From the NCBI RefSeq assembly GCF_020740795.1, contig NC_067310.1:365940-429939 (forward strand): 64,000 nt of DNA. The letters are read 5' to 3'. Positions 23,840 through 55,469 of this stretch are shown here, one piece after another. The notes below the pieces were generated by a model, which was not told the origin of the DNA, searched no databases, and saw nothing but the letters and a program-made list of their open reading frames with translations. This stretch comes from Apus apus. Lineage: Eukaryota. Both the position numbers and the translations under genes were made by a program. Within the stretch, counting starts at the first letter, position 1. Each line of letters starts with the position of its first letter.

Positions 23840-24140
23840 GAAGGAACACTCATCCAAGCCACAAGCAGCCAGTTTCTCCAGGAGAATGATGTGGGAAAGA
23901 GAGTCAAAGGCCTTCCTAAAGTCCAGGGAAATGACAGGCACAGCCTTTCGTGCATTCACGAGACAGGTCACGTTGTCATAGAAGGAGGGCAAGCTGGTCC
24001 AGCAGGACATTCCTTTCATGAACCCATGCTGGCTGGGCCTGATCACCTGCTTGTCCTACCCGTGCTGTGTGATGGCCCTCAGGATAATCTTCTCCAGAAA
24101 TTCCCCAGCACAGAGGTCAGGCTGATAGGCCTGCAAGTCC
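23840..24140 (-). mobile_element. CR1 RT fragment at the tandem-duplication junction
   Basis: …IRPSQHGFMKGMSCWTSLPSFYDNVTCLVNARKAVPVISLDFRKAFDSLSHIILLEKL…. Confidence 0.65.
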
Positions 24141-24835
24141 CCGAATTCTCCTTCCATGCATTATGGAAAGAAACAGGCAAGGGAAAATGGGGAGGATGGG
24201 GACAGGAGGGGAACAGGGAGCTGGTATTTCTGCAAGGGGATATTGGGATGTCCAGGGGGAAGGATGGATCCCCAAGGGCTCCAGGACATGAGGGGAAGAG
24301 GGCCGGGGCCATGTCCAGGAGGGGATGATGGGCAAACGAGCTGCTCATGGGAGATGGGGGTGAGGCTGGTTCAGCGGGGGGGCAGAGGAGCAGGTCTGTG
24401 TGCCAGGACAGTGCAAGGGACATGGGTGCAACAAGAGCTGAACAGTGTCTGCAAGAGGGGACTGTGGATCCAGGACCTTCAGAAATCATACAGGGCCATC
24501 TCCAACTTCTCGGGGCCATCGACAGCCTCTCTGGGCCATCCTCAGCCTCTCTGCACAAGCTGCTTCAGTATCTCACCACCCTTCCACACGAGCTGATGTC
24601 ATGCTGGGCAATAATAAAGTGGGATCAAAGAAGGGGTTGGGGAATGTGTCCCAAGGCAGGTGTCACTCTCCAACTGGCTGGGCAGCTGGGTGGGAGCTGC
24701 TGAGGCTTTGCTTTTGCAGCTCTTGTTTTTCATTCTCATACCTTCAGTTATTTAACCATCTTTGTCTGGTCTGCTCCGAGTTTTCGTGCTCTGATGCTGA
24801 GGCGCCTGAGGCGTTTCCTCTCCCATCCTTATCCC

Positions 24836-24872
24836 TTTCACTTTCGCTCTGACTCACCCTCATTTCCGGGAA
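24836..24872 (+). promoter_or_regulatory. ISRE plus GAS module upstream of GBP copy 2
   Basis: Identical module at an offset of +18566. Confidence 0.55.
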
Positions 24873-24895
24873 TAGGAGGAGAGGGGCTGGCTCCT

Positions 24896-24972
24896 CTGAC
24901 ACGGGACAAAAGGCAGGGCAGGAGCCGGCTGCACAGAGCTGTTGCAGCCCAGGGAAGGTGACAAAGACAGCG
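24896..24972 (+). other. Putative non-coding exon 1 of GBP copy 2
   Basis: Same as copy 1 at an offset of +18566. Confidence 0.35.
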
Positions 24973-26431
24973 GTGAGTCCCATTCCCTGACCCCAGAAAG
25001 GGACCCCGGGAAGGGACAGGGACCCCAGCGAGGAAGAGGGACCCCAGCGGGTGGCAGGAGGAGGGAGACTTCCAGAGGTCTGCTCAGGCTCTGGGATGGC
25101 AGAAGGGGAACGGGTGGCTGGGAGCCTGTCTTCAACCCCGCGTGGCTTTGCGTGCAAGTTGGGTCTCACCTAAGCTTGGACCTGATGCCCAACCTCTCGT
25201 CTCCCTCCTCCTGCGCTGGGAGCACCCGTGACATGAGGCACAGCCTCTTGTCCCCTGGTGCCATCCCCGAGATGCTCTGGAAGAGGGCAGGGCTGATGAG
25301 GCCCTGGAGAGGATGCAGAGCCCAGGAGTGGGCAGTGTCCGTGGAGCTCGCCATTGCTGGAGCGAGTCCCGGGCTGCCCGGGCGTTGCAGTGGGGCAGCT
25401 GCTGAGTGTGGGCATGGGATGAGCCCTTGTGCTGCCTGCACCTCCCTGGGGTTTGTGGGCAGCTGGTGGGGGCTGGGGGGTGGCTGGGGCTGGTCGTGGT
25501 TGAACAGCAGCCGGAAGCTCCTGTGCATCACAGGTCTGTCTTGGGTTTTGTTTCTCTCTCTCTGTCACCATTTTCCTTGTCGTCACATGTTCTTTATTAT
25601 TAAGATCATTGTTTTCTTATCCTTCAGTTATTACCTGTGGTCAACTCAACGCATGGGCTTTCTCCCTCCCCCCACCACTGCGGGGCAGGGACTGTGCAGC
25701 TGGGGGGCCTCGGTTTTCAGCTGGGGTTTCAGGCAGCACGACCCCCAGCCCAGGGGCTGGCGGGGGGAGTGAGGAGCAGACAAGGGCTGGGCGCAGGGTC
25801 AGCCCTGCTGAGGGTGATGGGACCACCAACCCCAACACCGTTTCCAGCACAAATCCATGTTACATGTTACACCAGCATGGGAGCTGGGCAAGGTCAGGCA
25901 GCGGGGGATGTCCCCGTGAGAGGCACAGAGGGGGACGGGGGTTGGGTGGGGTTGGGCGGAAGAAAGGGAGGGAGAAATTCAGGAGCAGCTCCCCTGAGGT
26001 TCCGTGTCAGCCCGACCAACCCTTGGCCCGTGCTGCTGTGGCTCTCCAGTCCTTCTCCTGCCCTTCAGCCCTGCCTGAGGCCATTGCCCCATCCCACCCC
26101 CATATTTGCTCCGCAGACTTGGTGCTGGTGATGAGCAGGACGTGGGGCAGAGGTTTCCCACTGTCCCGCAGGGCCTTCAGGAGCGGAGCCATTCCTGCGG
26201 TGGGACACACGGGATGGGCCGTGCCCCTTGGCCAAGTGTCATCAGTGTCTTCACCACAGGGCTTGGGAGGGGCCAAAGGAGGAGCCGTGGAGGCAGGACC
26301 TTGGTGACAATGTGGTCTGCTTGCAAAGATGCCCTAGGAGGATCCTGCCTGTCCCTGCCTGCACTGTGGGGTGTCCTCACCACGTGAACCCCTCTGGCCC
26401 TCTCCTCTGCAGGCCGCCTTTCCCGTCAGCA

Positions 26432-26612
26432 ATGGCATCCACAGTCCACATGCCAGCGCCTGTCTGCCTCATTGAGAACAGCCCGACAAAGGGGCTGATG
26501 GTCCAGAGGGAGGCCCTGCAGCTGCTGTCCAAGGTCAGCCAGCCTGTGGTGGTGGTGGCCATCACAGGGCCGTACCGCACGGGCAAGTCCTACCTCATGA
26601 ACAGGCTGGCTG
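26432..26612 (+). CDS. GBP: GBP copy 2 exon 2 (ATG exon)
   Basis: ATG at 26432, donor gtgaga at 26613; identical to the copy 1 exon. Confidence 0.85.
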
Positions 26613-29600
26613 GTGAGAGAAGAGGTGAGGGAGGTCCCTGCCCTGGACGGCCAAGGAACCTGGCTTCTCCTACTCGTCATCTGACACAGATGGGAGCCTT
26701 GTTTCCTCCCCACAGGCTTCTCCTTGGGCTCCAGCGTGCAGTCCCAGACCAAAGGTATCTGGATGTGGTGTGTACGTCACCCCCGCCGGCCTGGACACAC
26801 TCTGGTGCTGCTGGACAGTGAAGGGCTGAGTGACGCAAAGAAGGTGTGTGAGAGGCAGGGTCTGCCTTTGTGGCTTCCCAGCACCTGGAGGAAGCTCTTG
26901 GGGGCCCAGCCATGGTGCCCAGAGTCAAGGCGTTCCCACTGCTCACGGTGGCCTTCAGCCGGTGTGCTGGGATGGGCCAGAGGCCACAAGGAAGGAGGTT
27001 GGGGGAGGCACGTTTCCAAATCCCTCTGCATTTCTGGAAAAGAGCAGTTGCACAGGAAGGAGGGGCTCAGGGAGCACTTGGGTAGACCCCGAGACTTCAG
27101 AGTTGAGGACAAGCCCAGCTACAGACAAGGCATGGTGATGGCATGGGGGTGCGTGTTGCCATGGCCCGTTGTGTAGGGGCATTCAGGCTCTGGGCATCTG
27201 GGGCTCTGCTCATACCTGGGGGACCTTGTTGATCAGAGCCAAGGGTTGTTGTTCCAGAGTGACACCAAGAACGACACGTGGATCTTTGTGCTGACCGTGC
27301 TGCTCTCCAGCACCATGATCTACAACAGCAAAGGCACCATTGACCAGAACGCCATGGACCAGCTGCAGTATCCTTGGTGGGACAGGAGCACCAGGGATGC
27401 CCTCCTCTCCCTGCGTGGTGGGCTAGGGCTTGGCAAATGCCAGTTCCTCAGAGGGCTGCAGAACCTTCTGCTGGTGCCCAGGGATGTGCTTGGAGACCTT
27501 AGGAGCCCCATGCTGTGGGCCTGAGGGCCGAGGGGTTTTCTCCCTCCTCCTTCTGGTGGGTCCAGGCTGTTCGGCGTCCCCGCCGAGTCTCCCCTCCTCC
27601 CTGTGACGTGCTGAGGGTTGCAGGATGGCAATGCCCCTGCATTCAGAGCTGAGGTCCCTGTTTCCTTAGCCAGCTCCCCAGCTACGTGACAAAGCTGACT
27701 GAGCGCATCAAGTTGAAAGCAGCACCCAAGAAGAGTGAAGATGAGCTGGATGATTCCCACACATTTGTCAGCTTCTTCCCGACTTTTGTCTGGGCTGTCC
27801 GGGATTTCACACTGCAGCTGCAGGTGGATGGGGAGGAAATCTCTGAGGATGGATACTTGGAGGACATTCTGAAGCTCAAGGCTGGTAAGGGGGTGGTGCT
27901 GTGCTGCTGGAGACATCCAGCCCCAGACTCAGCAGCCACATTTCAGGATAATTCAACAGCATTCCAAGCCTGTGAACCTGCTCCGTGTCCTCCTACCCCC
28001 CAGGCAGCAGCCCCGAGACCCAGCTCTACAACCATCCCCGGGAATGCATCCGCCAGTTCTTTCCGGAACGCAAGTGCTTTGTTTTTGACCAACCAGCTGG
28101 GAGGAGGAAACTGCCCCTCTTGGAGGAACTTCCGGATGATGAGCTGGATCCTGATTTCCAGCAGCAGGTAGAGAAGTTCTGCAGCTACATCTGGGAGAAG
28201 TCTCCGCCTAAGACCGTCCCAGGTGGCCACATCGTAACTGGGAACCGTGAGTACTGCTGCCCAAGGGGTGGGTGGCCAGCGGCTCTTGGGACTGTGTCTG
28301 GGGGAGGATCAAGTGCCAAGGGTGCGGGTGGGGAAAGGGAGAGATGTTTTCCTGCCTGCTGTCCCTGCCCCGGGGTTTGGAGCTTTGGGACGTTGCAGGT
28401 GTGGTGGGAAAGAGTTAGGAAAAGCAGTTCAGGAGGCCTGGGGCAGGGAGGCAGCGTGGGTACAGCAGGAGACAGGGCTGGGTGGGTGCCTGCGTTTGTC
28501 GGGGCTGCAGATCTCTCGCCCTGGGTCTTCCTTGGCAGTGCTGGGGAAACTGGCAGAGACCTACCTGGAGGTCATCCGGAGCGGGGCAGTGCCATGCCTG
28601 GAGAGCGCGGTGTTTGTCCTGGCCAAGGCTGAGAACGCGGCGGCGGTGGAGGAGGCTGTGAGGTTGTACCAGGAGCTGATGGAGCAGCGGGCGAAGCTGC
28701 CAACGGAGACTCTTGAGCAGCTGCTGGAGCTGCATGCCCAGTGTGAGCGGGAGGCCCTGGAGCTGTTCATGGCACGGGCATTCAAGGAGGACATCGAGCA
28801 CGCCCAGATCGAGCTCGCGGTAGGTGGTGCCCAGCCCAGCCAGAATTCCCCCAGGGACACCGTCATCCCCTTGGCTTTGGGAACATGGCATGGTCCTGGG
28901 CAGGGGGCTCTCCCTGCCTCCTGCCAGAGGACACGGCCATGCCCTCTCCAGAGGAGGCTCGGCCCCAGCGCCTGCCCTGGCTGTCTGGCAGCCGTCCCTG
29001 CTGTGCCCCCTCTTCTCCCAGGGTCAGCAGCTGTGCTGCCAGGGGACGGAGCTCAGCCCTGGCCCCTCTCCTGCGGCAGCCCCGCTGCAGCTCTGCCCCG
29101 CCTGGAAGCTGCAGCCTTCCATGCTCCCCCTGTCCTGCCTGCTAATGCTGTCCCTGGGTGCTGTGAAGCCTGTGGTCCCTGGCCTGTCCCCTGCTCCTGG
29201 GCACCTTTGGCCAGAGATGTCCGTGGGCGTGCAATGCCCTCCCCATCTGTCCCCTCCCAGCTGTTCACCCCACGGACGGGAGATCCCAATTCCCACGTCC
29301 TCCTGGCTCGATGTGTGCCCTGCCTGAGCGCGGTGGGTGCAGCTCAGCCAGGGCTGGTGTCTTCCCTCTGCCCCTGCACGCACAGCGCCGGGTCGAGGCC
29401 ATCAAGGTGAAGTTCTCCATGGACAACGAGCAGGCATCCCAGGACAAGTGTGAGGCTGCTCTCACGGACCTCTCCCAAGCCCTGGACAAACGAGTCCGTG
29501 ATGGTGTCTACAGCGTGTCAGGGGGTTACGAGCAGTTCAGAGGAGACCAGCAGGCAGTGGTGGAGAAGTACAGGGATCTGCCTGGCAAGGGAGTGAAGGT

Positions 29601-30491
29601 AGGACCAAGAGCAGCTCTCCTTCAAGAGCAAAAGGCTCAATGTCCCATCCCCTTCCCCAAGACGCCGTTCTCCCCAGCTGCTGCTTCCCCTCTTGACTCC
29701 TCTTCTCCCTGGGCTCCTACAGGCTGATGCTGTCCTGCTGCAGTTCCTCCAAAGGACACAGACTCTGGCCCAACACATCCGCAACACAGACCGCTCCCTG
29801 ACAGAGAAGGACAAGGAGATGAAAAGTAACTTCTGGGCTGGAGAAATGACGCTGCCTGTAGAGGGCCAAGCACAATGGAGAGGGACAGCAGTACTCCTCG
29901 GGGGCTTGCGGGCTCAGCTCCTGCCCTGGCAACACCTCTGTTTCTCTGTCACCAGGTGCACAAGAGCAGAATGAGAGAGCTGAGCAGGAGAGGGAAGTCC
30001 AGAGGAAGAAGGAGGCTGAAGAGAAGCAGAAGTTGCAGGACCAGCTACGCAAAACCAACGAGCATGAGCGTCAGCTGAGAAAGAAGCTGGAGGATTCCTA
30101 CAAGAAGCAGCTGGAGGAGCAGGAGAAGATAATCAGACATAAATTAGAGGTACCGGTGGGGGAGGGAGGGAAGTGAAGGTGCCAAGGGGTGGCCAGCAGG
30201 CAGGAATGGCACAGGGGTCCCAGCAGGGTCCCTCTTGTTGCTTCTTTGCTCTGTGCCCCTCTCACGACACGCACTGTGCCCTTGGTGACAACCTGCCTGT
30301 CTTCCCAGGAGGAGAGAGCACTGAGACAAGAGGGCTTCTTTGACAGAGCTGACCACATGAGCCAGGTGACCCGTAGGCTGGAGGAGGAAAAAGGCAGCAT
30401 CACTCATAATTTATTGTCTGTGGTTGAAACATTTGTACCCCTGGCGAGAGCTGTGAGAAGGGCCATATCTGCCTTTTCGAAACGCTTTTGA
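26432..30491 (+). CDS. GBP: GBP paralog copy 2 (intact, 10 coding exons, 612 aa)
   Basis: Direct repeat of copy 1 at an offset of +18566, all splice sites checked in sequence. Exons 2-10 are nearly identical to copy 1; the terminal exon is diverged (…[60 protein letters not shown]). Exons: 26432-26612, 26716-26843, 27258-27367, 27682-27884, 28004-28246, 28539-28819, 29386-29598, 29723-29825, 29956-30149, 30309-30491. Confidence 0.88.
26716..26843 (+). CDS. GBP: GBP copy 2 exon 3
   Basis: Acceptor cacag at 26714-26715, donor gtgtgt at 26844. Confidence 0.85.
27258..27367 (+). CDS. GBP: GBP copy 2 exon 4
   Basis: Acceptor ttccag, donor gtatcc at 27368. Confidence 0.8.
27682..27884 (+). CDS. 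GBP: GBP copy 2 exon 5
   Basis: …[25 protein letters not shown]…, donor gtaagg at 27885; same acceptor ambiguity as copy 1. Confidence 0.7.
28004..28246 (+). CDS. GBP: GBP copy 2 exon 6
   Basis: Acceptor ccccag, donor gtgagt at 28247. Confidence 0.85.
28539..28819 (+). CDS. GBP: GBP copy 2 exon 7
   Basis: Acceptor ttggcag, donor gtaggt at 28820. Confidence 0.85.
29386..29598 (+). CDS. GBP: GBP copy 2 exon 8
   Basis: Acceptor cacag, donor gtagga at 29599. Confidence 0.85.
29723..29825 (+). CDS. GBP: GBP copy 2 exon 9
   Basis: Acceptor ctacag, donor gtaact at 29826. Confidence 0.8.
29956..30149 (+). CDS. GBP: GBP copy 2 exon 10
   Basis: Identical in sequence to copy 1 exon 10; donor gtaccg at 30150. 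Confidence 0.85.
30309..30491 (+). CDS. GBP: GBP copy 2 terminal exon (diverged C-terminus ...SAFSKRF*)
   Basis: Acceptor cttcccag at 30307-30308, stop tga at 30489-30491. Confidence 0.8.
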   Translation, partial: EERALRQEGFFDRADHMSQVTRRLEEEKGSITHNLLSVVETFVPLARAVRRAISAFSKRF

Positions 30492-33122
30492 AGATTTCCT
30501 TATGGCCCCAGGGGTAACACAGTGAGAGAGCTTTTTGCTTTCCCTACCTGCCATCCTGTGACATTTCAAAAGCACTGCAAGGTGCTTGCCAGAGAGTATG
30601 CAACTAACCTCCACCTGCACTTGGACCACACTCTCTAGTGCATTCACACAGGGCTTCTCCAGATGAAGATGTTGTCCTCTTCCGTGCCAGAGCACTTGGT
30701 GTCTCCCTTGCCCTGAAGGCGTGGGGCACATCTCAAGCCAGGCTGGCCTGGGGCACAGAAAGGCCATGATGCCAGCAGGCCGGGCTGGGAGTGTTTTGCC
30801 AATGTGCCAAAGGGGATCCCACTCACCTTTTCTGGAGACCTCCTTACCAGGGCTGCCTGAAACCCCCAGGCGAGCTTTGAGCTCATGTCCTCGGCTCACA
30901 CTTCCCGCAGCAGCGTGAAGGAGGTGGAGGTGGTGAGCAAACCAGGGGTCCACGTGCTGAGCACTGTCTTCCCAGGTCACCTTCACGCCTGATGGAGCCT
31001 GCCTGTCCTGGAGGTGGCTGCACACCCGCCTGCCGATGGGAAGTGGGGAATTCAGCCCTTGTTCTGTTTTCTTTGCACACGCAGCTGTTGCTTTGCCTAC
31101 TAAACTGCCCTTCCCTCAACCCCTGAGTTGCCTCCTTTCTTTTGCCCTGCCCATTCTCTCCTCCACCCCACCAGTGGTGTGGGGCTCAGCTGTCGAATGG
31201 GGGTCACCCATAGAGAACGGGGCTTCCCTCCTGCCCCCGGGGAATCAGACCTCCAGCTGCACCAGGAGAATCACAGTATCCTCCTGGTTGGAAAGACCGC
31301 TAAGATCATCTGGTCCAGTTGTCCACCAGGGGCCAGATAAGGAGTGGAAGGAACAACACATCCCACCCAAGTGAACAACAACAAAGCCCACAACCACTCA
31401 CCCCACAAACCACAGAAACCACACCATGCCCTCTCTAGCATGCCCTGAAGTGCCACATCAACATGTTTCTCAAATGCCTCCAGGGATGGTGACTCCACCA
31501 CCTCCCTGGGCAGACCCTTCCAGTGCCTGACCAGTCTTTGGGTAAAGAGATGCTTCCAGATAGCCAGTCAGAACCTCCCCTGGGGCAACTTCAGGCCGCT
31601 TCCTCTGCTCCTGTTGGTGTTCATTTGAAGAAGCAGGGACCCCAACTGTTCCAGTGAGGGAAGGTGTAAAAGATGTAGAGGTTTCTGAGTTCCCTATAGG
31701 CAGAGGGGCTGGTCCCAAGGCAGTTGCCCCAGAGGCACCAGCCCCTGGAAGGCCCTTCCTGCTGTGTGGACACTCCATCCCTGCAGGGGAGGTCCATGGA
31801 GCACAGCGCTGCTCACCCAGGAAGGTCCTGGGGAGCCTGCTGAGGACACAGCCCTGGCTCAGTTCCTCCACCTGCTCTTGTGCTGGTGCAGATTTCCCTC
31901 TCAGCCCTCCCAACTGGGAGAGCCTGTATCCCTGCAAGACTCCAGCCCTGGGACCCATCCCACCACGTCTCTGCGATCCCAGCCGCATCGTAGCCCTGCA
32001 GCAGCTCACAGGACTCTCGCTCCTCACGGTTATTCCCCTACCCTGTGCACTAATGCACAGACCCTTGGGAGAGGCACCCCAGCTCCTGGAGCTCCTGGAG
32101 AGGGTTATGGGCCTTTGCCATCATGGTCCCATGTTGACACTTTTCTGCTTACACACGAGTGTTGGAGGTGACCTGCTTAAGGTGTGGTTGGTCGGTTTTG
32201 TGATGCCACCCCGTCACATCAGCCCAGGGCCTGTGCTCATTGCCCCTGCCTCACTCCCTCAAATGGCTGCTGGATACTCTCTCCCTCTCATCCCTAGATT
32301 CCCTTGCCCCTTGGTGAGGTGGATCCCGTCTCTCCCTGGTAGACCCTGATCTGCACGCAGGGTCCTGTTGTAGAGCCCCAAACCCCGCTGCCAGCACCAG
32401 GTCCTCAGCTGCTGAGCTGCATTAGCAGTGCTCTCCGGCTCCCACCCTTGCCCTTTAGGACCAGCAGACATTCCCTCCAAGCCCTGGACACCTGGGATGT
32501 GGTGACAGGTGAGTTGCCGTCAGGCCTTGTCCCTGCCATGAGTGGGCACCAACAGGTGTCCCCAAGGCAGCGAAGGGGAGCTGATCCACTGACCTGTCCT
32601 CCCAGTAAGAGACGTCCTGCTACGAGGCAGCAGCAAGAGGGACGGGACCCACTTCCACGCCACCCGTGATCTCTCTTGCATGACCATTATAAAGAGAACA
32701 TGAGAACCTGGGACAAGAAACCCACTGCTGTTCTCCACGTACACATACATGAGCTGCTAGGCGGAACAATTACAGGAGAAGGTCCTTCCAGGAAGAGGGC
32801 TGCTCCAGTCTCCAGCAACCAGTCCTCCAACCAGAATGGACGGACTCTAGATCTCAGTGCTTCAACCTCAAATGCTCAACATGAGAGGCGCCCTGCCTCT
32901 AGCCAGGAGGAGGAAAGAGACAATTGAGTTTACTGGACTGTGCGGATTCGGTGGCCTGGCACATTAGAACCACAAAAGTATAAAGCCCTGGTGGACACTG
33001 GTGCGCAGTTCACCCTAATGCCAGAGGCTGACAGTGGACTATCATGTCCTGAATGAGGTGACACCACCGCTCAGTGCTGCTGTGCCAGACATGCCAGAGT
33101 TTCAGTACGAGCTGGAGTTGAA

Positions 33123-35091
33123 AGCAATCAGGCAAGGAAGGCAAGAGACCAGCATGGCTCAGTCAAGACCTTCTGGCCAAACTAAAGACAAGATGGAACT
33201 GCAGAGGCACTGGAGGAGGGGACAGGTATTCTGGGAAGAGTATAGGGACACTGCCTGGCTTTGTAGGGATGAGGTCAGGGAGGCCAAGGCACAGCTGGAG
33301 CTGGACTTGGCAAGGGATGTGAAGAAAAACAAGAAGGGCTTCTACAGGTACATAAAGCAGCAAAGGAAGTTTAAAGAAAGTGTCCCGTCCCGATGGGCAG
33401 CAATGCTGATCTAGGAACAACAGACAAGAATGCTGAGGTTATCAGCAACTTTTTTGCTTCAGTTTTCACTGGCAACCCCTCTCCTCATGCCTCTCAAGTT
33501 GATGGCCCACAGGACGGAGACCAGGGAGACAAAGTTCCTCCCACCGTAAGTGAAGACAAGGTTCATGACCAGCTGAGGAACCTGGACATACACAAGTCCA
33601 TGGGACCTGATGAGATGCCTCCCAGAGTCCTGAAGGAATTGGCTGATGCAGTTGACAAGCCACTCTCCGTGATATCTGAAAAGTCCTGGCAGTCAGGTGA
33701 AGTCCCTGGTGACTGGAAAAAGGGAAACATTACGCCCATTTTAAAAAGGGTAGAAAGGAGGACTCTGGGAACTAGGGACTTGTCAGCCTCACCTCTGTGC
33801 CTGGGAAGAATCATGGAACAGATCCTCCTAGAAGACACGCTAAGGCACATGGAGAATGGGGAGGTGATTCAGGACAGCCAGCATGGCTTTACTAGGGACA
33901 AATCCTGCCTGACCAACCTAGTGGCTTTCTACAATTGAGTGATTGCACCAGTGGACAAGGGAAGACTTACAGATGTCATCTATCTGGACTTCTGCAAGGC
34001 CTTTGACACGGACCCCCACAACATCCTTCTCTCTAAGTTGAGGAGACACGGGTTTGAGGGGCGGACATTTCAGTGGATAAGGAACTGGCTGGATGGTCAC
34101 ATCCAGAGGGCAGTGCTCAATGGCTCGATGTCTAGATGGAAAGTGGTGACAAGTGGTGTTCTTCAGGGGTCCATACTGGGACCACTGCTGTTTAATATGT
34201 TCATTAACAATATTGACAGTGGCATTGAGAGCAACCTCAGGCAGTCTGCTGATGGCATCAGGCTGGGTGGTGCAGTTGACATGCCAGAGGGACCTGGACA
34301 AGCTGGAGAAGTGGACCCAAGTGAACCTCCTGAGGTTCAACAACGCCAAGTGCACCCTGCACCTCAGCCAGGGCAACCACAGATACCAATACAGGCTGGG
34401 GGACAACATGCTAGTGAGCAGCCCTGTGGAAGACCAGGGGGTACTAGTGGATCCAAAGCTGGACATGAGCCACCAATGTGCAATTGCAGCCCAGAAGGCC
34501 AACCACATCAAAAGAAGCATGGCCAGCAGCTCGAGAGGTGATTCTGCCCCTCTACTCTGCTCTGGGGAGACCTCACCTGGAGTGCTGGCTCCATCTCTGG
34601 AGCCCTCAACACAGGAAGGATGTGGACCTGTTGGAGCATGTCCAGAGGAAGGCAAAGAAAATGATTCAAGGGCTGGAGCACCTCTCTTAGGAAGACAGGC
34701 TGAGGGAGCTGGGGTTGTTCAGCCTGGAGAAGAGAAGACTCTGGGGAGACCATATATATAGTGATCTTCCAGTACCTGAAAGGGGCCTATAAGAAGGCTG
34801 GGGAAGAGCTGTTCACAGGGCATGTAACTATAGGACAAGGGGTGATGCTTTCCAACTAAAGAGGCTAGATTTAGGTTGGACATTAGGAAAAAGTTCTTTA
34901 GTATGAGGGTGGTGGATCATTAGTTGCCTAGAGAGGGGGTGGGGACCCCACACCTGGAGACATTCAAGATCAGGCTTGATGGGGCTCTGAGTAATCTGTT
35001 CCAGTGTGAGATGTCCCTGCTTATTGTAGGGGGGTTGGACCAGATAACCTTTAGAGGTCCTTTCCAACCCAAGACATTATATGATTCGACA
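33123..35091 (+). mobile_element. CR1 LINE (copy in repeat unit 2)
   Basis: Offset +18723 from 14400-16368. Confidence 0.8.
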
Positions 35092-38680: not shown

Positions 38681-38789
38681 AGGCAGCTGTTCAGTGTCCT
38701 CAGTCTCTACAGCTGCTCTACCAAAGGCCCACCGGTGCCCTGTTGGGTCACGGAAATACCCTTTTTTGGATAGGCTATGTTAAGAATGC

Positions 38790-41643: not shown

Positions 41644-41724
41644 TACACACACAGACACACAGACACACACACAGACACACAGACACACAGACACACAGAC
41701 ACACACACACACACACACACACAC
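41644..41724. repeat. (CA)n/(CAGA)n microsatellite
   Basis: acacacacagacacacagacacac…acacacacac. Confidence 0.9.
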
Positions 41725-42289: not shown

Positions 42290-42770
42290 AATAACCAGCC
42301 AGAAAAAGAATTTAGAATTAATTTATTTATTTGAGGTAAGTGAGCAAACAGCGCTGGGCACGCCGGGAATCACTGCTCCACCAAGACGCGCGCTCGGCTC
42401 CTCACGGGGTCCTTTCTTATACAATTCTTTTTTCCCCGCCGTTGCAAAGCTCCACCCCTTCTTGGAAAACTCCATCCTCTGTGTTGTGGTTGCCGCTCTT
42501 CAGGACATGCGCAGTCACTCAAAATGTTATATAACTTTTGGTTCGATACACTTGATTATATAACAGGGTATAGCTTCCAACATTAACCCTCACATAACCA
42601 TTACATAACATTCAACACTTTACAAACATGAACGTAACTCCTAACACTTAACAAACATAACTTCCAGCATTTAACAAACATTGCAGTTTAACATTCAACC
42701 ATACACATTCACATTTGATCAGCAAATTAACTTCATGATTCACCTATAACAATGACCATGGCATCTAAAC
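42290..42770. mobile_element. LTR-like repeat (partner of 37260-37770)
   Basis: As above; abuts the 3' end of the GBP fragment. Confidence 0.45.
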
Positions 42771-42893
42771 AGAAGCATAAAAATTCAAATTCCAGCATTA
42801 TCAGTCATCTAGATGGGAAACCTTGGGATACTTAAAAGAGAACTCATTGAAGGAAAAAAAATCAGAAAAAAGGAAAATTGGCATAATTGTGAC

Positions 42894-43930: not shown

Positions 43931-44081
43931 CTGTGCGTGCAGGGGCAGAGGGAAGACACCAGCCCTGGCCGAGCCGCACCCACCGCGCTCAGGCAGGGCA
44001 CACATCGAGCCAGGAGGACGTGGGAATTGGGATCTCCCGTCCGTGGGGTGAACAGCTGGGAGGGGACAGATGGGGAGGGCG

Positions 44082-46022: not shown

Positions 46023-48653
46023 TTCAACTCCAGCTCGTACTGAAACTCTGGCATGTCTGGCACAGCAGCACTGAGCGGTGGTGTCACCTCATTCAGGACA
46101 TGATAGTCCACTGTCAGCCTCTGGCATTAGGGTGAACTGCGCACCAGTGTCCACCAGGGCTTTATACTTTTGTGGTTCTAATGTGCCAGGCCACCGAATC
46201 CGCACAGTCCAGTAAACTCAATTGTCTCTTTCCTCCTCCTGGCTAGAGGCAGGGCGCCTCTCATGTTGAGCATTTGAGGTTGAAGCACTGAGATCTAGAG
46301 TCCGTCCATTCTGGTTGGAGGACTGGTTGCTGGAGACTGGAGCAGCCCTCTTCCTGGAAGGACCTTCTCCTGTAATTGTTCCGCCTAGCAGCTCATGTAT
46401 GTGTACGTGGAGAACAGCAGTGGGTTTCTTGTCCCAGGTTCTCATGTTCTCTTTATAATGGTCATGCAAGAGAGATCACGGGTGGCGTGGAAGTGGGTCC
46501 CGTCCCTCTTGCTGCTGCCTCGTAGCAGGACGTCTCTTACTGGGAGGACAGGTCAGTGGATCAGCTCCCCTTCGCTGCCTTGGGGACACCTGTTGGTGCC
46601 CACTCATGGCAGGGACAAGGCCTGACGGCAACTCACCTGTCACCACATCCCAGGTGTCCAGGGCTTGGAGGGAATGTCTGCTGGTCCTAAAGGGCAAGGG
46701 TGGGAGCCGGAGAGCACTGCTAATGCAGCTCAGCAGCTGAGGACCTGGTGCTGGCAGCGGGGTTTGGGGCTCTACAACAGGACCCTGCGTGCAGATCAGG
46801 GTCTACCAGGGAGAGACGGGATCCACCTCACCAAGGGGCAAGGGAATCTAGGGATGAGAGGGAGAGAGTATCCAGCAGCCATTTGAGGGAGTGAGGCAGG
46901 GGCAATGAGCACAGGCCCTGGGCTGATGTGACGGGGTGGCATCACAAAACCGACCAACCACACCTTAAGCAGGTCACCTCCAACACTCGTGTGTAAGCAG
47001 AAAAGTGTCAACATGGGACCATGATGGCAAAGGCCCATAACCCTCTCCAGGAGCTCCAGGAGCTGGGGTGCCTCTCCCAAGGGTCTGTGCATTAGTGCAC
47101 AGGGTAGGGGAATAACCGTGAGGAGCGAGAGTCCTGTGAGCTGCTGCAGGGCTACGATGCGGCTGGGATCGCAGAGACGTGGTGGGATGGGTCCCAGGGC
47201 TGGAGTCTTGCAGGGATACAGGCTCTCCCAGTTGGGAGGGCTGAGAGGGAAATCTGCACCAGCACAAGAGCAGGTGGAGGAACTGAGCCAGGGCTGTGTC
47301 CTCAGCAGGCTCCCCAGGACCTTCCTGGGTGAGCAGCGCTGTGCTCCATGGACCTCCCCTGCAGGGATGGAGTGTCCACACAGCAGGAAGGGCCTTCCAG
47401 GGGCTGGTGCCTCTGGGGCAACTGCCTTGGGACCAGCCCCTCTGCCTATAGGGAACTCAGAAACCTCTACATCTTTTACACCTTCCCTCACTGGAACAGT
47501 TGGGGTCCCTGCTTCTTCAAATGAACACCAACAGGAGCAGAGGAAGCGGCCTGAAGTTGCCCCAGGGGAGGTTCTGACTGGCTATCTGGAAGCATCTCTT
47601 TACCCAAAGACTGGTCAGGCACTGGAAGGGTCTGCCCAGGGAGGTGGTGGAGTCACCATCCCTGGAGGCATTTGAGAAACATGTTGATGTGGCACTTCAG
47701 GGCATGCTAGAGAGGGCATGGTGTGGTTTCTGTGGTTTGTGGGGTGAGTGGTTGTGGGCTTTGTTGTTGTTCACTTGGGTGGGATGTGTTGTTCCTTCCA
47801 CTCCTTATCTGGCCCCTGGTGGACAACTGGACCAGATGATCTTAGCGGTCTTTCCAACCAGGAGGATACTGTGATTCTCCTGGTGCAGCTGGAGGTCTGA
47901 TTCCCCGGGGGCAGGAGGGAAGCCCCGTTCTCTATGGGTGACCCCCATTCGACAGCTGAGCCCCACACCACTGGTGGGGTGGAGGAGAGAATGGGCAGGG
48001 CAAAAGAAAGGAGGCAACTCAGGGGTTGAGGGAAGGGCAGTTTAGTAGGCAAAGCAACAGCTGCGTGTGCAAAGAAAACAGAACAAGGGCTGAATTCCCC
48101 ACTTCCCATCGGCAGGCGGGTGTGCAGCCACCTCCAGGACAGGCAGGCTCCATCAGGCGTGAAGGTGACCTGGGAAGACAGTGCTCAGCACGTGGACCCC
48201 TGGTTTGCTCACCACCTCCACCTCCTTCACGCTGCTGCGGGAAGTGTGAGCCGAGGACATGAGCTCAAAGCTCGCCTGGGGGTTTCAGGCAGCCCTGGTA
48301 AGGAGGTCTCCAGAAAAGGTGAGTGGGATCCCCTTTGGCACATTGGCAAAACACTCCCAGCCCGGCCTGCTGGCATCATGGCCTTTCTGTGCCCCAGGCC
48401 AGCCTGGCTTGAGATGTGCCCCACGCCTTCAGGGCAAGGGAGACACCAAGTGCTCTGGCACGGAAGAGGACAACATCTTCATCTGGAGAAGCCCTGTGTG
48501 AATGCACTAGAGAGTGTGGTCCAAGTGCAGGTGGAGGTTAGTTGCATACTCTCTGGCAAGCACCTTGCAGTGCTTTTGAAATGTCACAGGATGGCAGGTA
48601 GGGAAAGCAAAAAGCTCTCTCACTGTGTTACCCCTGGGGCCATAAGGAAATCT

Positions 48654-48836
48654 TCAAAAGCGTTTCGAAAAGGCAGATATGGCCCTTCTCACAGCTCTCG
48701 CCAGGGGTACAAATGTTTCAACCACAGACAATAAATTATGAGTGATGCTGCCTTTTTCCTCCTCCAGCCTACGGGTCACCTGGCTCATGTGGTCAGCTCT
48801 GTCAAAGAAGCCCTCTTGTCTCAGTGCTCTCTCCTC
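48654..48836 (-). CDS. GBP: GBP copy 3 terminal exon
   Basis: Stop complement tca at 48654-48656; protein ends ...[10 protein letters not shown]. Confidence 0.8.
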   Translation of the reverse strand, partial: EERALRQEGFFDRADHMSQVTRRLEEEKGSITHNLLSVVETFVPLARAVRRAISAFSKRF

Positions 48837-51800
48837 CTGGGAAGACAGGCAGGTTGTCACCAAGGGCACAGTGCGTGTCGTGAGAGGGGCACAGAGCAAA
48901 GAAGCAACAAGAGGGACCCTGCTGGGACCCCTGTGCCATTCCTGCCTGCTGGCCACCCCTTGGCACCTTCACTTCCCTCCCTCCCCCACCGGTACCTCTA
49001 ATTTATGTCTGATTATCTTCTCCTGCTCCTCCAGCTGCTTCTTGTAGGAATCCTCCAGCTTCTTTCTCAGCTGACGCTCATGCTCGTTGGTTTTGCGTAG
49101 CTGGTCCTGCAACTTCTGCTTCTCTTCAGCCTCCTTCTTCCTCTGGACTTCCCTCTCCTGCTCAGCTCTCTCATTCTGCTCTTGTGCACCTGGTGACAGA
49201 GAAACAGAGGTGTTGCCAGGGCAGGAGCTGAGCCCGCAAGCCCCCGAGGAGTACTGCTGTCCCTCTCCATTGTGCTTGGCCCTCTACAGGCAGCGTCATT
49301 TCTCCAGCCCAGAAGTTACTTTTCATCTCCTTGTCCTTCTCTGTCAGGGAGCGGTCTGTGTTGCGGATGTGTTGGGCCAGAGTCTGTGTCCTTTGGAGGA
49401 ACTGCAGCAGGACAGCATCAGCCTGTAGGAGCCCAGGGAGAAGAGGAGTCAAGAGGGGAAGCAGCAGCTGGGGAGAACGGCGTCCTGGGGAAGGGGATGG
49501 GACATTGAGCCTTTTGCTCTTGAAGGAGAGCTGCTCTTGGTCCTACCTTCACTCCCTTGCCAGGCAGATCCCTGTACTTCTCCACCACTGCCTGCTGGTC
49601 TCCTCTGAACTGCTCGTAACCCCCTGACACGCTGTAGACACCATCACGGACTCGTTTGTCCAGGGCTTGGGAGAGGTCCGTGAGAGCAGCCTCACACTTG
49701 TCCTGGGATGCCTGCTCGTTGTCCATGGAGAACTTCACCTTGATGGCCTCGACCCGGCGCTGTGCGTGCAGGGGCAGAGGGAAGACACCAGCCCTGGCTG
49801 AGCTGCACCCACCGCGCTCAGGCAGGGCACACATCGAGCCAGGAGGACGTGGGAATTGGGATCTCCCGTCCGTGGGGTGAACAGCTGGGAGGGGACAGAT
49901 GGGGAGGGCATTGCACGCCCACGGACATCTCTGGCCAAAGGTGCCCAGGAGCAGGGGACAGGCCAGGGACCACAGGCTTCACAGCACCCAGGGACAGCAT
50001 TAGCAGGCAGGACAGGGGGAGCATGGAAGGCTGCAGCTTCCAGGCGGGGCAGAGCTGCAGCGGGGCTGCCGCAGGAGAGGGGCCAGGGCTGAGCTCCGTC
50101 CCCTGGCAGCACAGCTGCTGACCCTGGGAGAAGAGGGGGCACAGCAGGGACGGCTGCCAGACAGCCAGGGCAGGCGCTGGGGCCGAGCCTCCTCTGGAGA
50201 GGGCATGGCCTGTGTCCTCTGGCAGGAGGCAGGGAGAGCCCCCTGCCCAGGACCATGCCATGTTCCCAAAGCCAAGGGGATGACGGTGTCCCTGGGGGAA
50301 TTCTGGCTGGGCTGGGCACCACCTACCGCGAGCTCGATCTGGGCGTGCTCGATGTCCTCCTTGAATGCCCGTGCCATGAACAGCTCCAGGGCCTCCCGCT
50401 CACACTGGGCATGCAGCTCCAGCAGCTGCTCAAGAGTCTCCGTTGGCAGCTTCGCCCGCTGCTCCATCAGCTCCTGGTACAACCTCACAGCCTCCTCCAC
50501 CGCCGCCGCGTTCTCAGCCTTGGCCAGGACAAACACCGCGCTCTCCAGGCATGGCACTGCCCCGCTCCGGATGACCTCCAGGTAGGTCTCTGCCAGTTTC
50601 CCCAGCACTGCCAAGGAGGACCCAGGGCGAGAGATCTGCAGCCCCGACAAACGCAGGCACCCACCCAGCCCTGTCTCCTGCTGTACCCACGCTGCCTCCC
50701 TGCCCCAGGCCTCCTGAACTGCTTTTCCTAACTCTTTCCCACCACACCTGCAACGTCCCAAAGCTCCAAACCCCGGGGCAGGGACAGCAGGCAGGAAAAC
50801 ATCTCTCCCTTTCCCCACCCGCACCCTTGGCACTTGATCCTCCCCCAGACACAGTCCCAAGAGCCGCTGGCCACCCACCCCTTGGGCAGCAGTACTCACG
50901 GTTCCCAGTTACGATGTGGCCACCTGGGACGGTCTTAGGCGGAGACTTCTCCCAGATGTAGCTGCAGAACTTCTCTACCTGCTGCTGGAAATCAGGATCC
51001 AGCTCATCATCCGGAAGTTCCTCCAAGAGGGGCAGTTTCCTCCTCCCAGCTGGTTGGTCAAAAACAAAGCACTTGCGTTCCGGAAAGAACTGGCGGATGC
51101 ATTCCCGGGGATGGTTGTAGAGCTGGGTCTCGGGGCTGCTGCCTGGGGGGTAGGAGGACACGGAGCAGGTTCACAGGCTTGGAATGCTGTTGAATTATCC
51201 TGAAATGTGGCTGCTGAGTCTGGGGCTGGATGTCTCCAGCAGCACAGCACCACCCCCTTACCAGCCTTGAGCTTCAGAATGTCCTCCAAGTATCCATCCT
51301 CAGAGATTTCCTCCCCATCCACCTGCAGCTGCAGTGTGAAATCCCGGACAGCCCAGACAAAAGTCGGGAAGAAGCTGACAAATGTGTGGGAATCATCCAG
51401 CTCATCTTCACTCTTCTTGGGTGCTGCTTTCAACTTGATGCGCTCAGTCAGCTTTGTCACGTAGCTGGGGAGCTGGCTAAGGAAACAGGGACCTCAGCTC
51501 TGAATGCAGGGGCATTGCCATCCTGCAACCCTCAGCACGTCACAGGGAGGAGGGGAGACTCGGCGGGGACGCCGAACAGCCTGGACCCACCAGAAGGAGG
51601 AGGGAGAAAACCCCTCGGCCCTCAGGCCCACAGCATGGGGCTCCTAAGGTCTCCAAGCACATCCCTGGGCACGAGCAGAAGGTTCTGCAGCCCTCTGAGG
51701 AACTGGCATTTGCCAAGCCCTAGCCCACCACGCAGGGAGAGGAGGGCATCCCTGGTGCTCCTGTCCCACCAAGGATACTGCAGCTGGTCCATGGCGTTCT

Positions 51801-52714
51801 GGTCAATGGTGCCTTTGCTGTTGTAGATCATGGTGCTGGAGAGCAGCACGGTCAGCACAAAGATCCACGTGTCGTTCTTGGTGTCACTCTGGAACAACAA
51901 CCCTTGGCTCTGATCAACAAGGTCCCCCAGGTATGAGCAGAGCCCCAGATGCCCAGAGCCTGAATGCCCCTACACAACGGGCCATGGCAACACGCACCCC
52001 CATGCCATCACCATGCCTTGTCTGTAGCTGGGCTTGTCCTCAACTCTGAAGTCTCGGGGTCTACCCAAGTGCTCCCTGAGCCCCTCCTTCCTGTGCAACT
52101 GCTCTTTTCCAGAAATGCAGAGGGATTTGGAAACGTGCCTCCCCCAACCTCCTTCCTTGTGGCCTCTGGCCCATCCCAGCACACCGGCTGAAGGCCACCG
52201 TGAGCAGTGGGAACGCCTTGACTCTGGGCACCATGGCTGGGCCCCCAAGAGCTTCCTCCAGGTGCTGGGAAGCCACAAAGGCAGACCCTGCCTCTCACAC
52301 ACCTTCTTTGCGTCACTCAGCCCTTCACTGTCCAGCAGCACCAGAGTGTGTCCAGGCCGGCGGGGGTGACGTACACACCACATCCAGATACCTTTGGTCT
52401 GGGACTGCACGCTGGAGCCCAAGGAGAAGCCTGTGGGGAGGAAACAAGGCTCCCATCTGTGTCAGATGACGAGTAGGAGAAGCCAGGTTCCTTGGCCGTC
52501 CAGGGCAGGGACCTCCCTCACCTCTTCTCTCACCAGCCAGCCTGTTCATGAGGTAGGACTTGCCCGTGCGGTACGGCCCTGTGATGGCCACCACCACCAC
52601 AGGCTGGCTGACCTTGGACAGCAGCTGCAGGGCCTCCCTCTGGACCATCAGCCCCTTTGTCGGGCTGTTCTCAATGAGGCAGACAGGCGCTGGCATGTGG
52701 ACTGTGGATGCCAT
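48654..52714 (-). CDS. GBP: GBP paralog copy 3 (intact, inverted twin of copy 2)
   Basis: Reverse complement of copy 2 (coordinate sum 79146, or 79145 after a 1-bp intronic indel). The ORF-track proteins match copy 2, including the copy-2-type terminal exon. Exons, low to high: 48654-48836, 48996-49189, 49320-49422, 49547-49759, 50327-50607, 50900-51142, 51262-51464, 51779-51888, 52303-52430, 52534-52714. The ATG is the complement of 52712-52714. Confidence 0.88.
48996..49189 (-). CDS. GBP: GBP copy 3 exon 10
   Basis: Mirror of 29956-30149. Confidence 0.85.
49320..49422 (-). CDS. GBP: GBP copy 3 exon 9
   Basis: Mirror of 29723-29825. Confidence 0.8.
49547..49759 (-). CDS. GBP: GBP copy 3 exon 8
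   Basis: Mirror of 29386-29598. Confidence 0.85.
50327..50607 (-). CDS. GBP: GBP copy 3 exon 7
   Basis: Mirror of 28539-28819; acctac|cgcgag boundary checked. Confidence 0.85.
50900..51142 (-). CDS. GBP: GBP copy 3 exon 6
   Basis: Mirror of 28004-28246. Confidence 0.85.
51262..51464 (-). CDS. GBP: GBP copy 3 exon 5
   Basis: Mirror of 27682-27884; boundary cacgtag|ct checked. Confidence 0.7.
51779..51888 (-). CDS. GBP: GBP copy 3 exon 4
   Basis: Mirror of 27258-27367. Confidence 0.8.
52303..52430 (-). CDS. GBP: GBP copy 3 exon 3
   Basis: Mirror of 26716-26843; both boundaries checked in sequence. Confidence 0.85.
52534..52714 (-). CDS. GBP: GBP copy 3 exon 2 (ATG exon)
   Basis: cat at 52712-52714; donor complement ac at 52532-52533. 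Confidence 0.85.
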
Positions 52715-54173
52715 TGCTGACGGGAAAGGCGGCCTGCAGAGGAGAGGGCCAGAGGGGTTCACGTGGTGAGGACACCCCACAGTGCAGGCAGGGACAGGCA
52801 GGATCCTCCTAGGGCATCTTTGCAAGCAGACCACATTGTCACCAAGGTCCTGCCTCCACGGCTCCTCCTTTGGCCCCTCCCAAGCCCTGTGGTGAAGACA
52901 CTGATGACACTTGGCCAAGGGGCACGGCCCATCCCGTGTGTCCCACCGCAGGAATGGCTCCGCTCCTGAAGGCCCTGCGGGACAGTGGGAAACCTCTGCC
53001 CCACGTCCTGCTCATCACCAGCACCAAGTCTGCGGAGCAAATATGGGGGTGGGATGGGGCAATGGCCTCAGGCAGGGCTGAAGGGCAGGAGAAGGACTGG
53101 AGAGCCACAGCAGCACGGGCCAAGGGTTGGTCGGGCTGACACGGAACCTCAGGGGAGCTGCTCCTGAATTTCTCCCTCCCTTTCTTCCGCCCAACCCCAC
53201 CCAACCCCCGTCCCCCTCTGTGCCTCTCACGGGGACATCCCCCGCTGCCTGACCTTGCCCAGCTCCCATGCTGGTGTTACATGTAACATGGATTTGTGCT
53301 GGAAATGGTGTTGGGGTTGGTGGTCCCATCACCCTCAGCAGGGCTGACCCTGCGCCCAGCCCTTGTCTGCTCCTCACTCCCCCCGCCAGCCCCTGGGCTG
53401 GGGGTCGTGCTGCCTGAAACCCCAGCTGAAAACCGAGGCCCCCCAGCTGCACAGTCCCTGCCCCGCAGTGGTGGGGGGAGGGAGAAAGCCCATGCGTTGA
53501 GTTGACCACAGGTAATAACTGAAGGATAAGAAAACCATGATCTTAATAATAAAGAACATGTGACGACAAGGAAAATGGTGACAGAGAGAGAGAAACAAAA
53601 CCCAAGACAGACCTGTGATGCACAGGAGCTTCCGGCTGCTGTTCAACCACGACCAGCCCCAGCCACCCCCCAGCCCCCACCAGCTGCCCACAAACCCCAG
53701 GGAGGTGCAGGCAGCACAAGGGCTCATCCCATGCCCACGCTCAGCAGCTGCCCCACTGCAACGCCCGGGCAGCCCGGGACTCGCTCCAGCAATGGCGAGC
53801 TCCACGGACACTGCCCACTCCTGGGCTCTGCATCCTCTCCAGGGCCTCATCAGCCCTGCCCTCTTCCAGAGCATCTCGGGGATGGCACCAGGGGACAAGA
53901 GGCTGTGCCTCATGTCACGGGTGCTCCCAGCGCAGGAGGAGGGAGACGAGAGGTTGGGCATCAGGTCCAAGCTTAGGTGAGACCCAACTTGCACGCAAAG
54001 CCACGCGGGGTTGAAGACAGGCTCCCAGCCACCCGTTCCCCTTCTGCCATCCCAGAGCCTGAGCAGACCTCTGGAAGTCTCCCTCCTCCTGCCACCCGCT
54101 GGGGTCCCTCTTCCTCGCTGGGGTCCCTGTCCCTTCCCGGGGTCCCTTTCTGGGGTCAGGGAATGGGACTCAC

Positions 54174-54250
54174 CGCTGTCTTTGTCACCTTCCCTGGGCT
54201 GCAACAGCTCTGTGCAGCCGGCTCCTGCCCTGCCTTTTGTCCCGTGTCAG
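54174..54250 (-). other. Putative non-coding exon 1 of GBP copy 3
   Basis: Mirror of 24896-24972; donor complement actcac|cgctg. Confidence 0.35.
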
Positions 54251-54273
54251 AGGAGCCAGCCCCTCTCCTCCTA

Positions 54274-54310
54274 TTCCCGGAAATGAGGGTGAGTCAGAGC
54301 GAAAGTGAAA
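54274..54310 (-). promoter_or_regulatory. ISRE plus GAS module upstream of GBP copy 3
   Basis: ttcccggaa at 54274-54282 and gaaagtgaaa at 54301-54310. Confidence 0.55.
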
Positions 54311-55469
54311 GGGATAAGGATGGGAGAGGAAACGCCTCAGGCGCCTCAGCATCAGAGCACGAAAACTCGGAGCAGACCAGACAAAGATGGTTAAATAACT
54401 GAAGGTATGAGAATGAAAAACAAGAGCTGCAAAAGCAAAGCCTCAGCAGCTCCCACCCAGCTGCCCAGCCAGTTGGAGAGTGACACCTGCCTTGGGACAC
54501 ATTCCCCAACCCCTTCTTTGATCCCACTTTATTATTGCCCAGCATGACATCAGCTCGTGTGGAAGGATAGTGAGATACTGGAGCAGCTTGTGCAGAGAGG
54601 CTGAGGATGGCCCAGAGAGGCTGTGGATGGCCCCGAGAAGTTGGAGATGGCCCTGTATGATTTCTGAAGGTCCTGGATCCACAGTCCCCTCTTGCAGACA
54701 CTGTTCAGCTCTTGTTGCACCCATGTCCCTTGCACTGCCCTGGCACACAGACCTGCTCCTCTGCCCCCCCGCTGAACCAGCCTCACCCCCATCTCCCATG
54801 AGCAGCTCGTTTGCCCATCATCCCCTCCTGGACATGGCCCCGGCCCTCTTCCCCTCATGTCCTGGAGCCCTTGGAGATCCATCCTCCCCCTGAACATCCC
54901 AATATCCCCTTGCAGAAATACCAGCTCCCCGTTCCCCTCCTGTCCCCATCCTCCCCATTTTCCCTTGCCTGTTTCTTTCCATATTGTGTGGGCACACCCC
55001 TCTGACCAGGGGGTTGTTTACTTCATCCTTGAGTCTTCCTCACAGGAACCTTTGGCCGAGTTCTGTCTCTTCTCCCATTTCTCTCGGCTGACTCTGCAGC
55101 AGAACTGGTTACAGGAGGCATCCCTAGTCTCAGCTGAACGGCTTCTTTCTTCTTCAAGGACCCTTGTATTTCTTCCCTAAAACTCCAGACCAGCTCACAC
55201 AAAAGGCTTTCACACTCACTAGCAGTAGGCCCAGATGAGAGATTTACACCCTACAAGCAGTGAACTGTTTGAAGTCAGAGTTTGGGTAATGCTCTGTTTC
55301 ATGCAGCTGTCCACGATCACAAGAAATGCTTCTACAGATACATGAGCAGCAAAAAGAGGACTAGGAAGAATGTCCACCCTTTTTCAGATGCAGCAGGAAA
55401 CACAGTGATGAGGGGTGAGGAGAAGGCTGTCCCCATCCTCCCCATTTTCCCTTGCCTGTTTCTTTCCAT

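Follow-up and report, generated by a model that had tools for sequence, protein, structure and literature searches.

Two guanylate-binding protein (GBP) genes of the common swift, Apus apus, lie tail-to-tail on the arms of a near-perfect palindrome, and the question raised by this locus is whether the arms are alike because one was recently copied from the other or because gene conversion has kept two older copies alike. The locus is contained in a stretch of 64,000 nucleotides (hereafter the window; contig NC_067310.1 of RefSeq assembly GCF_020740795.1, positions 365,940 to 429,939 of the forward strand), in which all coordinates given below are counted. An original prediction, made from the letters of the window, took the high identity of the arms as the signature of palindrome gene conversion. 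The comparisons presented here point elsewhere. The palindrome is probably a genuine and very young inverted segmental duplication, formed within a recently amplified array of GBP1-like units of about 14 kb, and the identity of the arms would then mainly reflect the recency of that duplication, with short ectopic conversion tracts among all copies superimposed on it.

A BLAST self-comparison of the window aligned 24162–35061 (arm 1, plus strand) with the reverse complement of 44084–54983 (arm 2) over 10,901 columns with 17 mismatches and 2 gap openings (99.826% identity), and the same repeat was found by a separate repeat search as two blocks with a 1-bp indel between them. Global alignment with 300-bp margins showed that identity falls at once to background (30–45%) outside 24161/54984 and 35062/44083, so that the spacer between the arms spans 35062–44083 (9,022 bp). 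It is impossible that a 10.9-kb match of this exactness arose by chance. The arms also exceed both thresholds used for primate X palindromes, i.e., inverted copies around a spacer with arms longer than 8 kb and more than 99% identical (PMC8327919, Methods). The near-perfect palindrome of about 11 kb that had been predicted is therefore real, with arms of 10.9 kb at 99.83%, and was correctly placed to a first approximation, but its edges were off by 2–30 bp and the arms do not differ by 1-bp indels only. There are 19 differences, namely two 1-bp indels and 17 substitutions, 12 of which are transitions, and no indel longer than 1 bp was found over 10.9 kb. Nine of the 19 are confined to the outermost 420 bp (24215–24579), a clustering with a binomial P of about 1e-8, while the remaining 10.5 kb hold nine substitutions and one indel (99.91% identity). 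The divergence of the arms is thus 0.09% in bulk and 0.16% overall.

Arm 1 contains an upstream region, T, a GBP gene, G2, and a downstream endogenous retrovirus (ERV) pol fragment that is interrupted by a CR1-like element; arm 2 has the same content inverted, with the gene G3. The ERV pol fragment and the CR1-like reverse transcriptase (RT) element that splits it could be recognized 3' of each arm gene from their open reading frames (ORFs), the latter matching RVT_1. A protein pieced together from exon-like ORFs had its best match in Apus apus guanylate-binding protein 1-like (97%), and the next matches, from other birds, were at most 74% identical. Splice-aware gene models were then built with the 616-amino-acid Apus apus GBP1-like protein as guide. 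The coding region of G2 runs from 26432 to 30491 on the plus strand and that of G3 from 52714 to 48654 on the minus strand, each with ten exons and GT-AG introns, which confirms that copies 2 and 3 are arranged tail-to-tail. The two products of 616 amino acids are 100% identical to each other and to XP_051497525/530/531, which are encoded on a 688,416-bp contig; the prediction that the terminal-exon proteins are identical can therefore be extended to the entire protein. A third gene, G1, lies in direct orientation in a unit at 6195–17566 (plus strand), which repeats arm 1 together with 1.2 kb of the spacer. Its coding sequence (7866–11929, plus strand) likewise consists of ten exons with GT-AG introns and encodes the 616 amino acids of XP_051497528/529. 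The ORFs of all three genes are intact across all ten coding exons, and every intron is GT-AG. The protein of G1 differs from that of G2 and G3 at 16 residues, four of them in exon 4 and 12 in the C-terminal tail. The genes of the locus are already annotated in RefSeq.

The protein of the arm genes consists of an N-terminal GTPase domain (GBP, PF02263) and a helical domain (GBP_C, PF02841) according to Pfam, and the GTPase motifs, VRD among them, can be read in its sequence. Each arm also includes about 2.3 kb 5' of the ATG, with region T inside, and T is conserved in the great potoo at 70–73%. A core resembling the interferon-stimulated response element (ISRE) and the interferon regulatory factor element, GAAAGTGAAA, is present at 24836–24845 on the minus strand, about 1.6 kb upstream of the ATG of G2, and is mirrored at 54301–54310, and the other copies of T carry it at 828, 6270 and 23627. 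These five occurrences, one per copy of T, compare with 1.7 expected and are matches to a consensus only; the strict ISRE consensus, GAAANNGAAAST, has no match, the 10-nt core alone being found. As judged from sequence, both arm genes are intact and probably interferon-responsive GBP GTPase genes, and if both are expressed the immediate effect of carrying two identical copies is likely to be extra GBP dosage.

Whether the identity of the arms is special can be judged from the other copies in the window. When G1, G2 and G3 were aligned together over 24761–35061 (coordinates of arm 1), 54 substitutions proved specific to G1, 4 to G2 and 5 to G3. A single 500-bp bin accounted for 32 of the G1-specific sites; it holds a tract of about 360 bp, covering intron 9 and exon 10, in which G1 is 92% identical to G2 and G3. 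Outside patches of this kind G1 has about 17 specific sites in 9.8 kb (0.17%), and d(G1,G2) is about 0.22% as compared with about 0.09% for d(G2,G3). The difference is approximately 2.4-fold and significant, but a later duplication explains the closer similarity of G2 and G3 equally well as homogenisation. Beyond the arm, G1 and G2 differ at 2 positions in about 1,100 bp when one patch of 116 bp is set aside, and this value (about 0.18%) is the same as that inside the arm. The tail of G1 also recurs as an inverted copy, fragment F (56022–58823, minus strand, corresponding to 15696–18502), with about 5 differences in 2.6 kb outside the patch and the edge.

Two other repeats of the window bear on the same question. 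A second palindrome (656–5840 and 18623–23808) has arms of 5.2 kb that are 99.77% identical, i.e., diverged by 0.21%, around a spacer of 12.8 kb that includes the entire G1 unit. A direct repeat of 1–1955 and 53474–55429, spaced by 53.5 kb, is 99.8% identical (0.15% diverged); its partial copy at the left edge would belong to another minus-strand unit, G0, outside the window, and points to a repeat structure on a larger scale. The proposal that the identity of the arms is in itself a sign of palindrome gene conversion is not established by these values, since the direct copy G1 (about 99.8%), the second palindrome and the G0/G3 repeat are all of similar identity. Background paralog identity had been named as the yardstick against which the arms should stand out, and this they barely do: they are the closer pair, but only by 0.09% against about 0.17–0.22% for G1. 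As identity is similarly high in both orientations, the recency of the copies is sufficient to explain it and conversion specific to the palindrome is not needed. The absence of any private indel longer than 1 bp over 10.9 kb likewise favours youth of the arms. An apparent boundary of arm-limited conversion at the inner edge was considered as well, where G1 and G2 differ by 1.3% beyond the arm and G2 and F by 0.16%; it was rejected, as 14 of the 16 differences are located in the 116-bp patch.

A comparison outside the genus is provided by a 1.6-kb contig of the chimney swift, Chaetura pelagica, that covers exons 3–6, and by one locus of the great potoo. G1, G2 and G3 are 96.1–96.3% identical to the Chaetura contig. 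Of their approximately 58 differences from it 53 are common to all three Apus copies, and only 6 sites in 1.64 kb vary among the copies. All copies would therefore coalesce at a few percent of the Apus–Chaetura distance, and near-identity is not limited to the palindromic pair. More precisely, the divergence of the arms amounts to about 2.5% of that between Apus and Chaetura and the divergence of G1 to about 6%. The split between the two genera is placed loosely at tens of millions of years, on which scale the duplication events would be well under about 2 million years old.

In the great potoo, the GBP1-like locus (Nyctibius grandis JABXNV010000038.1, 136004–159977) has units repeated in the same direction about every 14.7 kb at 96% identity, and at least five GBP1-like paralogs, 87–95% identical to one another, are found on a contig of 648 kb. 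From these direct repeats it is likely that the ancestral state was a tandem array of units of about 14 kb. The paralog groups are species-specific in swift and potoo alike, which fits lineage-specific turnover; in mammals, too, the GBP family is reported to evolve by gain and loss (PMC8863968). No relevant work on GBP duplication or conversion in birds, or on avian GBP copy number, was found among the papers listed in the literature searches, nor was a paper on the Apus apus assembly.

The structure around the arms suggests how the inverted copy may have been formed. The minus-strand block 44084–58823 (14.7 kb), which extends from arm 2 through fragment F, is an inverted copy of plus-strand sequence from 15696–35061. 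It carries terminal direct repeats of 640 bp (44084–44726 and 58183–58823) at a spacing of 14,099, and its size is thus one period of the array plus 640 bp. The array comprises G1 and G2 on the plus strand, G3 on the minus strand and, presumably, G0 on the minus strand beyond the left edge. It is likely that plus-strand sequence from the tail of G1 through G2 (15696–35061) was copied in inverted orientation to give this block, and that the copy was joined by non-homologous junctions beside the remnant of an older GBP paralog.

The sequences of the junctions are in agreement with this. At the inner breakpoint (44078–44090) intron 6 of the older GBP fragment adjoins the 3' tail of a CR1-like element (...TTTAGAGGTCCT), the two being fused at 44083/44084 with microhomology of at most 1–2 nt. 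The inner edge of arm 1 is not a breakpoint, as the sequence runs on colinear with G1 and F through the first 1.2 kb of the spacer (35062–36289). At the outer edge it is G2 that diverges, at 24161/24162, and the match among G3, G0 and the second palindrome goes on. The junctions are unique and non-homologous; a duplication event agrees with them better than a simple fold-back does. Inverted homology resumes past the outer edge, where 23840–24205 matches the reverse complement of 55427–55799 at 97.6%. The outer extension of arm 1 (segment V, 23840–24161, plus strand) is part of a CR1-like RT (RVT_1) that matches the reverse complement of 55471–55799, and the outer extension of arm 2 (54984–55799, minus strand) consists of a 487-bp segment present only on that side (54984–55470, with direct repeats of 44 bp at its ends) followed by V (55471–55799). 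The CR1-like RT is continuous beside arm 2 and is split by the right arm of the second palindrome (18623–23808), both pieces being recognized as RVT_1; it may be that this right arm was inserted into the plus copy. If so, the second palindrome should be the younger of the two, yet it is diverged by 0.21% and the first by 0.09%. An order of events based on these values was discarded: once the shared tract of four sites is removed, the second palindrome has 7 substitutions in 5.1 kb and the first has 9 in 10.5 kb, a difference that is not significant, and no order was deduced from it.

Some features of the window stand apart from the duplication itself. Both arms of the second palindrome contain an exon encoding CCDC81 HU domain 2, at 3777–4334 (plus strand) and mirrored at 20129–20602 (minus strand; Pfam E = 1.4e-24). 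A segment of 166 bp at 31348–31512 (and 47633–47798) is present in both arms and not in G1, and it is the sole sizeable indel between G1 and the arms. In the right end of the window, which is richer in AT (GC content about 40%), 61263–63902 on the minus strand is a comparatively well-preserved retroviral pol that is unrelated to the GBP repeats; its long ORFs for RT (240 amino acids), RNase H (296 amino acids) and integrase (211 amino acids) have strong Pfam matches.

The most serious alternative to a young duplication is that the palindrome, or the array, is older and that recurrent conversion from arm to arm has maintained the near-identity of the arms, in the manner of palindromes on sex chromosomes. 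Conversion does take place at this locus. Region T is also present in the right arm of the second palindrome, as a copy denoted X', and at sites 24305 and 24374 G2 and G3 share one state and G0 and X' another. At four sites in 24521–24579 it is instead G2 and X' that agree, and G3 and G0 that differ from them. The two groupings are incompatible with each other and require at least one exchange between copies, for which the simplest partners are T' and T, direct repeats that lie next to each other at a distance of 1.2 kb. This exchange accounts for four of the 17 substitutions between the arms, so that its effect was to lower their identity.

Conversion may have acted in three further places where differences are densely packed. 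First, in a patch of exon 4 (27751–27770, mirrored in arm 2) G2 and G3 differ from G1 by four nonsynonymous substitutions in 20 bp (D167E, H170D, T171K and S174G); as G1 matches the chimney swift, the state of G2 and G3 is derived, and over the 1.64 kb aligned with the chimney swift contig G1 has no other differences of its own. The patch could be either a micro-conversion tract or a multi-nucleotide event. Second, intron 9 and the terminal exon exist in three versions (11593–11953 in G1, 30155–30520 in G2/G3 and 42919–43155 in the spacer) that are 8–14% apart, although their flanks are only 0.2–1.4% apart; it is here that the 12 C-terminal residues of G1 and G2/G3 differ. Third, the 116-bp patch mentioned above (16640–16755, in the ERV pol) contains 14 G1-specific substitutions at which G2 and F agree, and is probably the result of ectopic conversion from another ERV copy. 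All three look like short ectopic tracts received from diverged donors outside the window. Conversion has therefore been active among the copies of the array, and the question is whether it has maintained the arms.

Several observations would be expected if it had, and they weigh against recency as the whole explanation. The incompatible site patterns demonstrate that copies of the array exchange sequence. No other pair in the window is as close as the arms, and the branch leading to G1 is longer than an equal three-way split allows (P of about 8e-4), as homogenisation also predicts. The differences between the arms are concentrated at the outer edge, where conversion would be least efficient and where edge-limited conversion would leave them, even though four of these sites belong to the tract shared with another copy. 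In addition, the age of the duplication would be read entirely from sequence identity. The size and identity thresholds for palindromes, which the swift arms exceed, fit the alternative equally (PMC8327919), as does the mosaicism of conversion type in the locus. When a steady state is assumed, the rate of conversion needed is c = 2u/d (10.1101/800185), and a d of 9e-4 for the arms and the rate of mutation given below lead to a c of about 1e-5 per nucleotide per generation. A rate of this order is not implausible. This calculation depends on u. For u the mutation rate of birds was used, and it is approximately 4.6e-9.

Against maintenance by conversion speaks the fact that copies in direct orientation at distances of 18.7 kb and 53 kb come close to the arms in similarity, leaving nothing that is specific to the palindrome. 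The divergence of G1 and G2 is equal inside and outside the arm, and the arms lack the private indels and transposon insertions that an older pair would have accumulated. Moreover, the older GBP fragment immediately adjacent to arm 2 is still diverged by 1.4–13%, and the sole conversion tract that can be resolved in the arms joins arm 1 to a neighbouring direct repeat and makes the arms less alike. The accepted test for arm-to-arm conversion is that a palindrome is common to several species and that its arms diverge less within than between species (10.1101/800185). Among the site patterns and copy comparisons in the window there was no evidence specific to arm-to-arm conversion, and the maintenance of the arms by this process is unproven; as an explanation of their identity it is possible but unlikely.

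The spacer (35062–44083) contains fragments of retroviral RNase H, integrase and RT, another RT fragment, a microsatellite, (AC)40, at 41645–41724, and the 3' fragment of an older GBP gene. Its ORFs match RT_RNaseH_2, rve, RVT_1 (twice) and GBP_C in Pfam, in accordance with the retroviral debris and GBP fragment that had been predicted, but the designation as junk was overstated. The older fragment (42897–44080, minus strand) extends from intron 6 to exon 10 and abuts arm 2; exons 7–10 are covered by 42919–44080. Compared with G3 it is diverged by 1.4% over the first 900 bp and by about 13% over the region of the terminal exon. It contains, on the minus strand and with canonical splice sites, an exon 9' (43283–43167) and an exon 10' (43001–42897), and the C-termini of the 591-amino-acid RefSeq isoforms X3 (XP_051497527) and X2 (XP_051497526), contained in their last one or two coding exons, are encoded only by this fragment. 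According to these RefSeq models the gene of arm 2 can also splice into the old exons of the spacer. As the annotated arm 2 gene crosses the junction between arm and spacer, the spacer is not wholly junk and the genes of the two arms are not equivalent. The C-terminus derived from the spacer exons ends in ...NDNTCILF, which is CaaX-like and is not found in the 616-amino-acid products of G1, G2 and G3; most sauropsid homologs have a hydrophobic C-terminal tail instead of CILF, and the CaaX-like ending could be due to chance.

It is tempting to speculate that the GBP array of the swift evolves in concert as an amplicon of immune genes, in which opposed units of 14 kb, the palindrome among them, are kept alike by continual conversion, short ectopic tracts shuffle distinct versions of exon 4 and of the terminal exon, and the spacer exons provide one arm gene with an alternative and possibly prenylatable C-terminus. 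Taken as a whole this scenario is rather doubtful. If true, it would constitute an autosomal or microchromosomal counterpart, devoted to innate immunity, of the ampliconic palindromes of sex chromosomes.

Finally, palindromic regions are prone to rearrangement and to mis-assembly, as the original prediction pointed out and as is reasonable general knowledge. The least convincing explanation is that the palindrome is an assembly artefact, either a false duplication or a fold-back misjoin, in which an inverted duplicate was built from two haplotypes of a single GBP region or from under-collapsed reads of it: alleles may differ by as much as the arms do (0.09–0.16%), the locus is rich in repeats and lies on a small contig of 688 kb, and the two 1-bp indels could be polishing errors, but this is improbable because the flanks of the two copies differ and the junction sequences are unique, the 9-kb spacer is largely single-copy, the mirrored part ends at 58823 and not at the end of the contig, further copies have structural differences of their own (indels of 166 bp, 487 bp and 5.2 kb), and, as weak support, the RefSeq isoforms that link G-type exons to minus-strand spacer exons require a GBP gene on the minus strand to lie upstream of the fragment. 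Even vertebrate assemblies made from long reads contain documented false duplications, the hallmarks of which are a gap separating the copies, read depth reduced to half, linked reads that are discordant and k-mers present in one copy (PMC9516828). The first of these is not present here, as there is no N anywhere in the 64-kb window.

A genuine and very young inverted duplication would have consequences beyond the locus. A bird innate-immunity family would have been caught in the middle of its amplification, with at least three near-identical full-length GBP1-like genes in 64 kb and in both orientations, whose copies differ mainly in short patches that alter exon 4 and the C-terminal tail. Such an array would be a natural case for telling recent duplication from concerted evolution away from the sex chromosomes. 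It also calls for caution with GBP copy counts and variant calls obtained from short reads in the common swift. In other respects the palindrome would be an ordinary recent segmental duplication.

Among known systems, the locus most closely resembles in form the palindromes of the mammalian X and Y and of the avian W chromosome, with which it shares arms longer than 8 kb and more than 99% identical, a spacer that is not duplicated, arms that carry an intact family of protein-coding genes, and a complex structure around centre and edges (PMC8327919; 10.1101/800185). It differs from them in that the swift gene is an innate-immunity GTPase and not a member of a testis-expressed family, and in that the palindrome is part of an array with direct repeats about as similar as its arms. 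In gene content it is closer to the GBP clusters of mammals, which evolve by birth-and-death and likewise comprise an interferon-type family in which some duplicates are specific to a lineage, paralogs form groups by species and pseudogene fragments occur (PMC8863968). The swift copies are, however, far younger (at least 99.8% identical in DNA, including introns and intergenic sequence) and some of their units are inverted, and a palindromic arrangement is not reported in the papers on GBP clusters that were consulted. With regard to its probable origin the locus resembles inverted segmental duplications produced by replication-based or end-joining processes, the breakpoints of which are situated in unrelated sequence with little or no microhomology. 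The size of the swift block, one period of the array plus 640 bp, is consistent with such an event, and the anatomy of the junctions suggests that a mechanism of this kind may have placed G3 opposite G2.

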